Shown here one piece after another: positions 5,646-16,082 of a DNA stretch of 16,082 bases. Origin of the DNA: a virus; UHGV virus genome UHGV-0136597, one strand, 5' to 3'. The notes under the pieces were generated by a model. It was not told the DNA's origin and did no database searches. It saw nothing but the letters and a program-made list of their open reading frames with translations. A program made the translations under genes and the position numbers. Positions within the stretch are counted from its first letter, which is position 1. Every line of letters begins with the position of its first letter.

Positions 5646-5766
5646 CGCTTTACCTTAGGGATAGAGCCTGTTCGCGTAGATATGACAGCCAAGAGCGGAG
5701 CGATGTTTCCACCACCATATCTCAGGCCCATATCACTAAGACTCTTGTTTTGATTGCACGCGAATG

Positions 5767-6357: not shown

Positions 6358-7016
6358 GCGCCTTCTCCCTGTACCTGAATCAATGTGAGGTTTCCGCAGA
6401 ACACTGCGCCGGTATCGATATACATCTGGTTGGCAAACTTGAGTAGTTTCACTGCTGGCGTATGACCAAAGATGAACGTGTCAGCTCCTTTGATTTCTTT
6501 CACGATCCCGTCTTGTGAGTTGCTGATTCGTTCGCGGTTCCAGATTACCTGCTGATGATCAACTGGCTTTCCAAATTCGTATTCGTCACAAGGATAATCG
6601 GCGTGGCAGATGACATATTTTTTACCTTCGCTCACCAGTTCGATGATTAACGGAAGTTCATCTGCTTTATGGGCAAGAGCTTTAGCCAGAATTTCTTTGT
6701 CGTAATCGAGATTAAAGAACCAGCCACCGCCATTAAACAGCCAGTGATTGACGTTTCCGTGCTCTGATAAGCCATCAATCATCATTTGCTCATGGTTTCC
6801 ACGTACAACTCGGAACCAGGGGAATGTGATTAATTCCAGACATTCGACGTTCTCTGTACCGCGATCGACCAAATCGCCAACCGAGATAAGCAGGTCTTTT
6901 TTGGTGTCGAATCCTATCGTCTCCAGTTTTTTCATCAGGTTCGTGTAGCATCCGTGCAGATCGCCAACTACCCAAATATTTCGGTATTTGCTGCCATCAA
7001 TTCTTTCGTAATAGCG
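6348..7016 (-). CDS. Ser/Thr protein phosphatase (lambda ORF221-type metallophosphatase)
   Basis: Starts [28 protein letters not shown] with GDLHG, GDLVDRG and GNHE metallophosphatase motifs, near-identical to lambda phosphatase as recalled. The 26-aa ORF-track extension overlaps ninH and is rejected. Confidence 0.9.
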
Positions 7017-13254: not shown

Positions 13255-13449
13255 CTATTTGTTTTTCTTGTTGCTTGGGAAAGGACGAACTTCCTCTCCA
13301 ATCACACTGCCATCAGGCTTTACCGTAACCATAATGTTACGGCCTGCCAGAATGGCCTTGCTGATAGCGCACTGGATTACACCAAAGTCACTGGCTGCTT
13401 TAGCCTGTCCATGGATTTTGGCGTAATCGGCAAGTGTCATTCGAATCAT
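13255..13449 (-). CDS. cro: Cro repressor
   Basis: 64 aa from the third Met ([33 protein letters not shown]...SNKKNK), paralleling lambda Cro. GGAGAG SD is correctly spaced for this ATG. Confidence 0.85.
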
Positions 13450-13480
13450 ATGCACTCTCCGTTATTAACCATGAACAAAG

Positions 13481-13555: not shown

Positions 13556-14272
13556 ATGGAAAATAAAAAATCACTGACGACAGAACAGCTCGAAGACGCT
13601 AAGCGGCTTAAGGCTTTGTATGAGTCAAAAAAGAAAGAATTGGGAATAACCCAATACTCAATCGCTGATGAACTGGGTATCACCCAAGGAGCGGTAGGGC
13701 ATTATCTTAATGGCAGAAACGCGCTAAACGTTGAGGTTGCATCTGGTTTTGCACGATTGTTGCAAGTCTCAATTGCTGATTTTAGCCAGTCAATTGCTGC
13801 CAAGGTTGCAGAACAGGCAGAAAGCCTTAAGAGCGATGCCAACGTAAGGTATGCAGGGGAATACAGAGCAGGAAAGAGGTATCCGGTGTTAAGCAGTATC
13901 CAGGCTGGCTCGTGGTGTGAAGCATGCGAACCATACACCATTAAAGACATAGATGTTTGGCTTGAGTCTGACGCGCATATTCAAGGTAATGCGTTTTGGC
14001 TTAAAGTGGAAGGTGATTCAATGACGGCACCGGTTGGGTTAAGCATTCCAGAGGGAACATTCGTTCTTTTCGATACCGGAAGGGAGGCGATCAACGGCAG
14101 CTTGGTCATAGCAAAACTTTCTGACTCTAACGAAGCAACATTCAAGAAGCTGATAATCGACGGCGGAAATAAATACCTCAAGGGACTTAATCCTGCATGG
14201 CCTCTCGTGCCAATCAATGGAAACTGCAAGATTATAGGCGTTGCAATTGAGACAAAACTAAGGCTGGTTTGA
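13556..14272 (+). CDS. cI: CI prophage repressor (HTH N-terminal domain plus S24/LexA-like autopeptidase C-terminal domain)
   Basis: 238 aa with an HTH segment (ITQYSIADELGITQGAVGHYLNG) and a C-terminal domain (FWLKVEGDSMTAPVGLSIPEGTFVLF...ATFKKLIIDGGNKYLKGLNPAWP) resembling the P22 c2 / lambda cI cleavage domain. Divergent from cro across the operators. Confidence 0.9.
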   Translation: MENKKSLTTEQLEDAKRLKALYESKKKELGITQYSIADELGITQGAVGHYLNGRNALNVEVASGFARLLQVSIADFSQSIAAKVAEQAESLKSDANVRYAGEYRAGKRYPVLSSIQAGSWCEACEPYTIKDIDVWLESDAHIQGNAFWLKVEGDSMTAPVGLSIPEGTFVLFDTGREAINGSLVIAKLSDSNEATFKKLIIDGGNKYLKGLNPAWPLVPINGNCKIIGVAIETKLRLV

Positions 14273-14289
14273 TCACGCAAGGGGCGATT

Positions 14290-14658
14290 ATGGTTGGAAC
14301 CGCTATAGCAAGCTTTTTTGGGATGTTGGCAATCTCGACAATTTACGTCTTAGCGCATGCTTTTATTGCGAAATCTCTATCAGAAAAAATAAGCCAGGCT
14401 TGGGCGCATAGATCAGCTCGTTTCATGATTCTTGTGATCATAGCAATACAAGGGATATCTGCATTTATCCTCTATGGATCAAGCTTATACCTATTGTATC
14501 AAGGCGCGACATTTACGCCTTACACCAGTGATTACGGAACTCTATACGATGGTAGTGAAGACATCACTGTGGCTTGGATCGTCTTTGGTTTATCTATGGC
14601 CGTGTCTGTTGTAGCAGACATCATTAAGGTAATTCTCGTCTTAACCTTCGCTGACTAA
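14290..14658 (+). CDS. Hypothetical 3-TM membrane protein co-directional with cI (rexAB-slot accessory gene)
   Basis: ATG 17 nt after the cI stop with AAGGGG SD (the ORF-track TTG start at 14269 is rejected). 122 aa with three long hydrophobic segments. No family recognised. Confidence 0.6.
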   Translation: MVGTAIASFFGMLAISTIYVLAHAFIAKSLSEKISQAWAHRSARFMILVIIAIQGISAFILYGSSLYLLYQGATFTPYTSDYGTLYDGSEDITVAWIVFGLSMAVSVVADIIKVILVLTFAD

Positions 14659-14744: not shown

Positions 14745-14829
14745 AATATCCTTTGTATTCATTTGTTTATCATTATTTCATCAAAAATAAATACCTTGGG
14801 TATTTACACAATAAAATACCTACAGTATT
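14745..14829. promoter_or_regulatory. Left operator OL: three 15-bp dyad sites of the OR type, with candidate PL directed at N
   Basis: AATATCCTTTGTATT (14745-14759), AATACCTTGGGTATT (14790-14804) and AATACCTACAGTATT (14815-14829). Candidate PL is TTTACA-17-TATTCT on the plus strand overlapping the last two sites. Confidence 0.55.
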
Positions 14830-14876
14830 CTTTAGCCATCAGCAGGACGCTGGAAGCCAAACGGAACAGATTGGCA

Positions 14877-14918
14877 GGCTCTTTAACATTGATGGGATTG
14901 TCCCGCCGAAATGCGGGA
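14877..14918 (+). promoter_or_regulatory. nutL (boxA plus boxB) in the PL leader
   Basis: GGCTCTTTAACA (boxA-like), then a spacer, then hairpin TCCCGC-CGAAAT-GCGGGA, identical in stem and loop to the nutR boxB. Confidence 0.55.
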
Positions 14919-15229: not shown

Positions 15230-15502
15230 ATGACAGTAGTCATTACATATCTGGCTGACGATAACGCCAGAAATCGCCGCAGAGCACGCAGACAGGCTCA
15301 ACGTGAACAGGCAATGCAAGAGCAGCGACTGGCGCGAAAAATTGCGCTAAAGCTCTCTGGTTGCGTCAGAGCAGACAAAGCAGCATCACTTGGCAGCCTT
15401 CTCAGCAAGAAGGCAGATGAATGCAGTGGAAGTATTTGCCTGCCAAACGTAGCCATTTACTCGGCAGGCTACCGGAAATCAAAACAACTGACGGCGAGGT
15501 AA
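15230..15502 (+). CDS. N: N-like transcription antiterminator (P22 gene 24-like) with an arginine-rich motif
   Basis: 90 aa from the ATG at 15230 (GGAGG SD 6 nt upstream): MTVVITYLADDNARNRRRARRQAQREQ...LPNVAIYSAGYRKSKQLTAR. The arginine-rich N-terminus and C-terminal tail resemble P22 gp24 as recalled. The ORF-track N-terminal extension is rejected. Confidence 0.8.
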   Translation: MTVVITYLADDNARNRRRARRQAQREQAMQEQRLARKIALKLSGCVRADKAASLGSLLSKKADECSGSICLPNVAIYSAGYRKSKQLTAR

Positions 15503-15505
15503 GTG

Positions 15506-15730
15506 ATGAATCAGACATACATTCCATCATGCTTGAGAAATCTGCCAAAGCAGAAAGCAAAGCCCCGCAAGCAAGCCATAAAGGGCGCTAAGGCAGAGGT
15601 TATTGATCAAGCAATACAATTGCTCAGGGAGGAGTTAAGAAGTGGCAAGCTCGAAGGAATGATGATGCCCTATCAGCGCGGATATCTATCGGCGATTAGT
15701 AAGTTGGAAGTATTGAAGAGTGAATTATGA
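15506..15730 (+). CDS. Hypothetical 74-aa protein immediately downstream of N
   Basis: ATG 3 nt after the N stop with GAGG SD. Basic N-terminus and a helical-looking C-terminus. No family recognised. Confidence 0.45.
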   Translation: MNQTYIPSCLRNLPKQKAKPRKQAIKGAKAEVIDQAIQLLREELRSGKLEGMMMPYQRGYLSAISKLEVLKSEL

Positions 15731-15792
15731 ACTATCTGGAATTTCCGGATGGTTCATTGTTTTGGCAGCAAACCACTTATTTGAGGTGAGAT

Positions 15793-16082
15793 ATGACAAT
15801 ATCATGGAGCGTACCTTTTCCTGAATCAGAAACTGAACATGATGGAATGCCTGTTTTCTGGAGATTCCAGGCGACAGTTGAAGAAGATGGAATCAAAATA
15901 TTCGCACTTCAATATATAGCTTTTCATCAGACAGAGCATTATGCATGGTTGGTTCCTGCGCATTGGATTGTTAATTTTAAACCAACACCAAATCAGTGGT
16001 TACAGGAATGGAAACAAAAGAGAAATAGATATGCAATTAAGAAAGTAGCAAAAAATGCAGAAAGATCTTTTGCATTCCCAAC
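15793..16082 (+). CDS. Hypothetical protein, AT-rich, N-terminal 96 codons only (runs off the window end)
   Basis: ATG at 15793 with GAGGTGA SD; frame open to the window end (MTISWSVPFPESETEHDGMPVFWRFQATVEEDGIKIFALQYIAFHQTEHYAWLVPAHWIVNFKPTPNQWLQEWKQKRNRYAIKKVAKNAERSFAFP...). GC content is clearly lower than the rest of the window. Confidence 0.45.
   Translation, partial: MTISWSVPFPESETEHDGMPVFWRFQATVEEDGIKIFALQYIAFHQTEHYAWLVPAHWIVNFKPTPNQWLQEWKQKRNRYAIKKVAKNAERSFAFP

Follow-up and report, generated by a model that had tools for sequence, protein, structure and literature searches.

What are the AT-rich genes that directly follow the antitermination gene N in the virus genome UHGV-0136597, and what do they do for the phage that carries them? 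The original prediction, made on the 16,082-nt stretch of this genome analysed here (the window), listed three open reading frames (ORFs) at 15506-16082, one of 74 aa, a possible mini-ORF of 20 aa and a longer ORF that leaves the window, and proposed anti-defence or host-takeover roles. Comparison with related prophages gave an architecture and a set of gene calls that are in all likelihood correct. In this lambdoid prophage, the segment appears to open an array of accessory cassettes that follows N directly in the pL operon, with a 74-aa cassette gene followed by a gene of the HK97 Gp45 family. The features are:

15506..15730, + strand: gene for a 74-aa basic protein (PHROG 5305, E 2e-37 over residues 1-74)
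15727..15765, + strand: terminator-like RNA hairpin that closes the 74-aa cassette and covers the 74-aa stop codon
15727..15789, + strand: the "20-aa mini-ORF", a chance frame across the hairpin-linker junction
15764..15795, + strand: cassette linker GGCAGCAAACCACTTATTTGAGGTGAGATATG, with the Shine-Dalgarno GAGG (15783-15786) and the start codon of the next cassette
15793..16082, + strand: HK97 Gp45-family gene (PHROG 1636), first 96 codons, running off the window end

The long ORF begins at 15793 and leaves the window with exactly 96 codons visible, as had been described. Its remainder was supplied by close relatives, which extend it to 471 nt, or 156 aa (L001, WP_000167585.1). The full-length relative matched PHROG 1636 from end to end (E 5e-112 over 1-156/156) and is 98.7% identical to HK97 Gp45 (NP_037731.1), from which the 96 visible codons differ at two or three residues. 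ORFs that are 99-100% identical, unannotated or labelled "hypothetical", are present in H-19B, EDL933-Stx (933W), BP-4795, Min27, phage 86 and dozens more Shiga toxin (Stx) phages, the protein being ORF20 in Min27 and orf57 in phage 86. At the nucleotide level the visible 288 nt are 97.6-99.3% identical to 84 gene copies. The close family is limited to Enterobacterales, with gp45 found in 598 of 5,426 complete E. coli genomes at up to four copies per genome. In Pectobacterium odoriferum (L005, 6001-6477), a 63%-identical homologue lies at the far end of the operon, directly before xis and int, showing that the Gp45 family is not bound to the position after N.

Only noise came from Pfam, NCBIfam and PADLOC, and from PDB sequences queried with the single Gp45 sequence or a 74-member profile; the best PADLOC-DB E values were 0.0097 and 0.015, over short stretches, leaving no significant defence match. 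A literature search by accession, locus tag, PHROG number and "HK97 gp45" found nothing on this protein. Several known genes of the region were considered as identities and rejected. The long ORF is not a cIII, kil or erf homologue, the outcome that would have replaced an accessory gene by a known regulatory or recombination gene, as those genes are separate and lie 1.5-2.5 kb further downstream in relatives. It is not lambda Ea10 (hhalign probability 0.2%), and neither it nor the 74-aa ORF has a Ral match; Ral is a separate 66-aa cassette, placed upstream of Gp45 in phi367. Gp45 also lacks any signature of gp17 or SieB; in L001 it is the following gene that PF17420 (superinfection exclusion gp17) hits (E 2e-55).

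The visible part of the long ORF has a GC content of 0.368 (0.25 at third codon positions) against a window mean of 0.470 (standard deviation 0.036) and is the lowest-GC 288-nt stretch of the window (0.2th percentile), confirming the AT-richness first noticed. Overall, gp45 genes have GC contents of 0.36-0.45 compared with 0.47-0.51 for the prophages carrying them, and the homologues in other genera range from 0.44 to 0.45 in carriers of 0.49-0.51. This deviant composition and the sharp mosaic junctions on both sides agree with the separate acquisition that had been suggested, and the arrival of the long ORF as a separate module is well supported. Among 31 distinct gp45 alleles, 1, 1 and 20 sites varied at codon positions 1, 2 and 3, with 20 synonymous against 2 amino-acid-changing codons. 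Comparison with an 81%-identical homologue from a metagenomic prophage (L175) gave 0.12 for nonsynonymous differences (pN) and 0.84, which is saturated, for synonymous ones (pS). gp45 is a real gene under strong purifying selection.

The 74-aa ORF also lies where it had been placed, closely coupled to N, with its ATG 3 nt past the N stop codon and a GAGG of its own. Its homologues form 41 clusters down to 57% identity (Enterobacter, Citrobacter, Leclercia), throughout which the length is held at 74 aa. Values of pN were 0.18-0.19 against 0.84-0.85 for pS, codon position 2 was the least variable, and the ratio of synonymous to changed codons was 11:14 in this frame against 6:21 and 3:22 in the other two. 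In L003, where PGAP annotates the gene, a mosaic junction falls exactly at its ATG. The encoded protein has an isoelectric point (pI) of 9.9 and a lysine-rich stretch of 30 N-terminal residues with a net charge of +8. In L001 (8207-8377, corresponding to window 15421-15591), RefSeq/PGAP omits the 74-aa gene and calls a 56-aa ORF in another frame (WP_198485046.1) that covers the 3' end of N and the first part of the 74-aa gene. Because selection and the mosaic junction both indicate that the 74-aa frame is real, the 56-aa call looks like a recurrent mis-annotation. The 74-aa ORF is a real, selected, shuffleable cassette gene.

These results bear directly on whether the two ORFs are decaying or non-functional prophage remnants, as could be supposed from their annotation as hypothetical only and from the other-frame call made for the 74-aa gene in one genome. 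The long ORF is whole at 471 nt in 84 of 84 loci, HK97, H-19B, 933W and phi367 included, so that no disrupted copy was seen in functional relatives. Both ORFs are present in plaque-forming phages, and pN/pS is ~0.14 for the 156-aa ORF and 0.21-0.23 for the 74-aa ORF. Together with the excess of synonymous over changed codons in gp45, the selection analysis refutes decay, whose probability we consider negligible.

The mini-ORF was not borne out as a gene. The string itself exists, at 15727-15789 and not at 15726-15788 as first given (off by one), and the final 3 kb of the window has 49 ORFs that reach 20 aa or more, this one included; its frame is unconserved across relatives and spans a mosaic junction. 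The upstream part belongs to the hairpin, a 14-bp stem ATGAACTATCTGGA-ATT-TCCGGATGGTTCAT (15727-15757) followed by the U-rich tract TGTTTTGG, which was flagged by the terminator scan. The hairpin has a minimum free energy of -24.1 kcal/mol and a z score of -3.55, equalled by 0 of 200 shuffles, and a Citrobacter relative retains the upper part of the stem, with a U.G pair turned into C-G. The downstream part is the linker. The same ~28-32 nt precede Gp45 in nearly all 84 loci, whatever lies upstream, as well as at least 13 different genes after the 74-aa cassette, and a regular expression for the linker, run on 175 loci, matched 150 times on the + strand and never on the − strand. When upstream contexts were classified in the 82 Gp45 loci with enough upstream sequence, 59 had an HK97-type N directly upstream, then the linker, with no window-type mini-ORF; ~9 had a ral or Nmad5 cassette with its terminator upstream, and the arrangement of the window was found in 6. 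The mini-ORF is not a gene, and consists of the hairpin of the 74-aa cassette joined to the linker.

An alternative is that the mini-ORF is a translated leader peptide coupling the 74-aa gene to translation of the next cassette, since its ATG overlaps the 74-aa stop codon (ATGA), its TGA lies inside the GAGGTGA Shine-Dalgarno region 3 nt ahead of the next ATG, and members of PHROG 37429 begin with its peptide. However, the frame is missing from the 59 HK97-type contexts, runs in-frame into Nmad5 in L003, and is reduced to 12 codons with a TTG start in the Citrobacter relative. In L116 and L126 the variants alter the mini-ORF peptide yet preserve the RNA pairing as G.U, and the start codon is buried in the 14-bp stem, all of which makes such a leader very improbable. 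A read-through or fusion of the mini-ORF with Gp45, with which it shares a frame at a distance of TGA plus one codon, was also dropped, as the upstream half is unlinked to Gp45 in most phages. Two database entries touch on the same junction. In PHROG 37429 (106 positions), the mini-ORF peptide aligns with positions 1-20 and residues 1-53 of Gp45 with 23-76, so that the family seems to derive from gene calls that are fused or truncated artefacts. In L003 (5020-5675), starting Nmad5 at the mini-ORF gives 230 aa compared with the 207 aa called by PGAP.

To describe what the linker leads into, we surveyed 85 loci with identical N, 74-aa gene, hairpin and linker, and found at least 13 different first genes in the slot that follows:

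Gp45: 20 loci
orf28-like acidic 28-mer leading into ral: 19 loci
83-aa protein: 10 loci
DUF7446 protein (80 aa): 8 loci
Nmad5: 6 loci
107-aa protein: 6 loci
149-aa membrane protein: 5 loci
several smaller proteins: 1-3 loci each

Pfam and PHROGs gave no function for occupants other than Nmad5, DUF7446 and the ral-associated cassette. N forms the constant left flank of the array, with the same 3' end before the 74-aa gene in 83 of the 85 loci. In other phages Ral and Nmad5 cassettes are found directly upstream of Gp45, and gp17 and anti-RecBCD genes downstream. The accessory character proposed for these early-left genes is supported by the conserved flanks, the many alternative occupants and a position equal to that of lambda ea10, ral, orf28 and sieB.

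The order of the cassettes can also be reversed. In L175, N is followed by the linker, the Gp45 homologue, a GC hairpin with TTTTGGCAGCAA…GAGGTGAATATG and then the 74-aa homologue, after which the array ends in the same ~130-nt non-coding region and terminator that follow Gp45 in E. coli. This arrangement indicates that both ORFs are cassettes of one array bounded by N and a shared terminal element. A GC hairpin with a T-run was found 3' of Gp45 in 66 of 76 loci, its stem shows covariation, and a terminator is annotated at this place in the HK97 record; this terminator, which lies beyond the window, belongs to the array end and not to Gp45 itself. In our reading, each cassette consists of a short Shine-Dalgarno linker, one ORF and a terminator-like hairpin with a U-tract, and cassettes would be swapped between phages by recombination at the common linker. 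What closes the array, outside the window, is non-coding DNA that is conserved and structured, followed by a strong intrinsic terminator.

Some details of cassette and array ends accompany this scheme. The ral cassette of phi367 (L002, ~6850-6915), the Nmad5 cassette of L003 (~5675-5740) and the Gp45 cassette of L175 (3455-3480) share a short GC hairpin and T-run at their ends, GGCCGCATAGTCGGCC TTTATTTTTGGCA or a variant of it, which leads straight into the next linker, so that the linker's TTTTGGCA is in part the U-tract of the preceding terminator. The array-end region of ~130 nt (L001 9050-9182, L175 3726-3860, HK97 L011 3972-4100) is ~90% identical between E. coli and the divergent L175, despite saturation of synonymous sites in the genes next to it. 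Its strong predicted fold (-46.8 kcal/mol, z -5.5) is a hairpin of 14 bp (core GTGTATTCA...TGAATACAC) within an outer stem, with the terminator next. Possible roles are those of a small RNA derived from a 3' end, an element for processing or antitermination, or a target for recombination. No Rfam match was found for it, for the stretch from N to the window end, or in L001 and L175. A − strand promoter-like site (TACACA-17-TAAAAT) overlaps the region. Further downstream in L001 (9539-10507) is another large early-left gene, which lies between gp17 and cIII in several relatives; its product of 322 aa contains an extended, highly charged stretch of E/K/A/R-rich repeats (PHROG 1376; PGAP names a relative "TolA").

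The array resembles several known systems without matching any of them completely. The lambda interval between N and cIII (ea10, ral, orf28, sieB) matches it in operon position and in being accessory and non-essential, and its orf28 and ral have a counterpart here in one alternative cassette, the orf28-like acidic 28-aa peptide plus ral. HK97 carries Gp45 in the same stretch between N and cIII, directly after N, whereas in the window it comes second, after the 74-aa gene and its hairpin. Like the morons described for HK97 and HK022 (Juhala et al. 2000; Cumby et al., PMC3594210), gp45 is a single ORF of foreign composition with a terminator-like element on its 3' side and sharp mosaic edges; unlike them, it has no promoter of its own that we could find, and its expression appears to depend on pL and N, not on an independent transcription unit. 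Integron cassettes are a functional analogy only: they too are promoter-less single genes in one orientation with short conserved junctions and one upstream promoter, but the array has no dedicated integrase or attC, and exchange presumably occurs by homologous recombination at the 28-32-nt linker. gp45 is thus a long-known hypothetical gene in a known kind of phage accessory hotspot, and not a new kind of system.

For the wider superfamily, an exhaustive profile search yielded 87 matches at E ≤ 1e-3. About 70 of these are full-length proteins of 130-160 aa with two common motifs, YR..G[IV]..HET in the β-sheet and K[RK]I.K..SRFAF.T..A..L..RK..Q..HLKR. The first is seen in the window as FWRF...DGIKI...HQTEHY, and the second starts at residue 79 (RYAIKKVAKNAERSFAFP) with its remainder past the window end. 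A first structure model from 22 close homologues was discarded (predicted local distance difference test score, pLDDT, 66); the AlphaFold model from a 74-sequence superfamily alignment reached a pLDDT of 95.6 and a predicted template modelling score of 0.82. In it, a long β-hairpin is joined by a third strand; there are also two short helices, one short strand, a helix of 33 residues and a C-terminal tail that is ordered. Residues 65-120 carry a net charge of +12 with acidic flanks on either side (overall pI 9.05), and this basic central part includes the long helix RRKKYHLMRIKQ. Basic helix residues are R107, R108, K109 and K110, and a motif near the C terminus, FGHN.ET..W, is invariant. By inspection, the protein is predicted to be soluble, with no membrane segment.

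A structure search of the model against the PDB found no solved relative. BFVD returned 14 phage proteins at E ≤ 1e-3, none of them characterised; the hosts of these phages are Erwinia, Rhizobium, Sinorhizobium, Achromobacter, Delftia, Tenacibaculum and Cellulophaga. An AP2 or integrase-arm DNA-binding fold, considered because of the strand-strand-helix order and SFAFP..A..SLL, was dropped, as no sequence or structure search backed it. Phages of Erwinia, Achromobacter, Delftia, Rhizobium, Vibrio and Klebsiella carry the superfamily or fold in their clusters of early genes, and some of the phages with such relatives are, we believe, virulent, suggesting a role in lytic growth rather than in lysogeny.

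The timing of Gp45 expression depends on the elements that precede the array. The final 3 kb of the window is the lambdoid immunity and early-left region, with the pL direction on the + strand, and includes upstream of the 74-aa gene:

14803..14831, + strand: pL-like sigma-70 promoter TTTACA-17-TATTCT (consensus scan, 9/12 matches)
14878..14918, + strand: nutL-like element, read from the sequence
15230..15502, + strand: N-type antiterminator gene, 90 aa (Pfam N_peptide E 5e-15; PHROG 271 E 2e-32)

The promoter lies between the cI-side genes and N, as fits pL, and is presumed to start the early-left transcript. The nutL-like element pairs GCTCTTTAACA at 14878-14888, which we take to be boxA-like from its resemblance to the boxA consensus, with a boxB-like GC hairpin, TCCCGC-CGAAAT-GCGGGA, at 14901-14918; together these presumably form nutL, and the N gene starts ~310 nt beyond. 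A consensus scan found no + strand promoter-like site upstream of Gp45, although a weak promoter could escape such a scan. In HK97-type phages no strong terminator-like site was detected between the pL-like promoter and the terminator after gp45, Rho-dependent sites being outside the scan. Both cassette genes would be transcribed from pL, with N antitermination reading through the cassette-end hairpins. In the HK97/933W arrangement, which is the commonest and has no terminator between N and Gp45, the protein would be an immediate-early product, probably produced at the same time as N, as soon as infection or induction begins.

What, then, would Gp45 do? We propose a role in counter-defence or host takeover, exerted in lytic growth or on induction, in which Gp45 would bind nucleic acid or a host protein through basic residues 65-120. 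This reading follows from the early timing, from a region that holds both ral and an abortive infection (Abi) trigger, from the neighbours ral, Nmad5, gp17 and anti-RecBCD genes, and from relatives in phages that are not prophages. The Abi trigger comes from a screen of 200 phage accessory genes by Silas et al., in which orf184, sharing its accessory region with ral, triggered gop-beta-cII abortive infection (bioRxiv 10.1101/2023.04.06.535777). According to the supplementary table of that study, orf184 is AFM76385.1 of phage mEp213 (JQ182733, 30588..30265). The alignment of the window with mEp213 stops at 30586, equivalent to window 15795, which puts the orf184 start at the equivalent of window 15793 and identifies orf184 as the 107-aa occupant of the slot; in mEp213, too, the N, 74-aa gene, hairpin and linker seen here come before it. 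The library of Silas et al. also contained orf60 (the 83-aa occupant), orf47 (a relative of the membrane-protein occupant), orf87 (ral) and orf144 (gp17). Neither Gp45 nor the 74-aa protein shares sequence similarity with orf184 or Ral, so that those phenotypes are not transferable.

Several points weigh against parts of this account. The Silas library contained neither Gp45 nor the 74-aa protein, and an anti-defence role for the two, plausible as it is, has their location as its sole argument. Guilt by location is a weak guide here, given that the same lambda region holds the defence gene sieB and that one slot occupant is a membrane protein. The hairpin after the 74-aa gene fits the terminator consensus scan, but only 5 of its 14 pairs are GC and its tract is UGUUUUGG; with an AT-rich stem and modest U-tract it may be a processing site or translational element and not a terminator, and the close relatives are so nearly identical that they offer little true covariation for it. 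We therefore regard the counter-defence or host-takeover function as possible and put it forward tentatively, and the explanation as a whole, architecture and function together, as somewhat better than an even proposition.

Two other functions have to be weighed against it. Gp45 might be a prophage defence or superinfection-exclusion moron that serves the lysogen, like lambda sieB, rexAB or HK97 gp15. Its AT-rich foreign composition and the terminator after the gene would suit such a role, as would the presence of sieB in the equivalent lambda interval, of a membrane-protein cassette and P22-type gp17 in or beside the slot, and of gp45 itself in so many E. coli prophages. Against it, the scan showed no promoter-like site upstream, and in HK97-type phages the gap between N and the gene is only 58 nt. 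PADLOC gave no match above noise, the protein has no predicted membrane segment, and sequence or fold relatives occur in phages believed virulent, which have no lysogen to protect. We consider a lysogen-serving role decidedly unlikely.

Gp45 could also be a nucleic-acid-binding factor for the phage's own development, in early transcription, replication or recombination. The basic central region with its long helix is consistent with this, as are the position early in the operon beside N and upstream of recombination genes, the very strong sequence conservation, and a Vibrio phage relative that adjoins RecE-like and replication genes. Against it, Gp45 is dispensable where it sits: the slot can be filled by at least 13 genes unrelated to one another, and lambda is one of many lambdoid phages without Gp45. 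The Pectobacterium homologue next to xis and int sits far from the early position, and no similarity to known DNA-binding folds was found, making a phage-internal role unlikely as well. A broader form of the counter-defence proposal, that the Gp45 family and its ~70-cluster superfamily in temperate and lytic phages are a new early counter-defence or defence-trigger class with a fold outside the PDB, and that the post-N array is an integron-like system of linker-mediated exchange, is doubtful at present.

The locus deserves attention for practical reasons. gp45 is carried by ~11% of complete E. coli genomes, by the model phage HK97 and by clinically important Stx phages (933W, H-19B), and was missed by the one published screen of the region (Silas et al.). 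Tight conservation, a confident model unlike solved structures and a place at the front of the early operon make Gp45 a good experimental target. Because the slot has already given Ral (anti-restriction) and orf184 (Abi trigger), Gp45 and ~10 other occupants form a short list for counter-defence screening. The linker serves as a simple sequence tag for collecting more cassettes from prophage data, and the linker and hairpin architecture accounts for recurrent mis-annotation in the form of spurious mini-ORFs, an N-terminally extended Nmad5 and the wrong-frame 56-aa coding sequence in RefSeq.

Upstream of the pL-like promoter, the immunity region contains three further genes:

13255-13455, − strand: cro
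13556-14272: cI/LexA-type repressor
14269-14658, + strand: membrane ORF of 129 aa, in the slot of rex in lambda (PHROG 6534, E 1e-78)

The 129-aa membrane ORF had no Pfam or PADLOC match. It overlaps the cI stop codon, at the spot occupied by rexAB in lambda and bstA in BTP1, and is probably co-transcribed with the repressor in the lysogen, making it a candidate prophage-expressed exclusion or defence gene.

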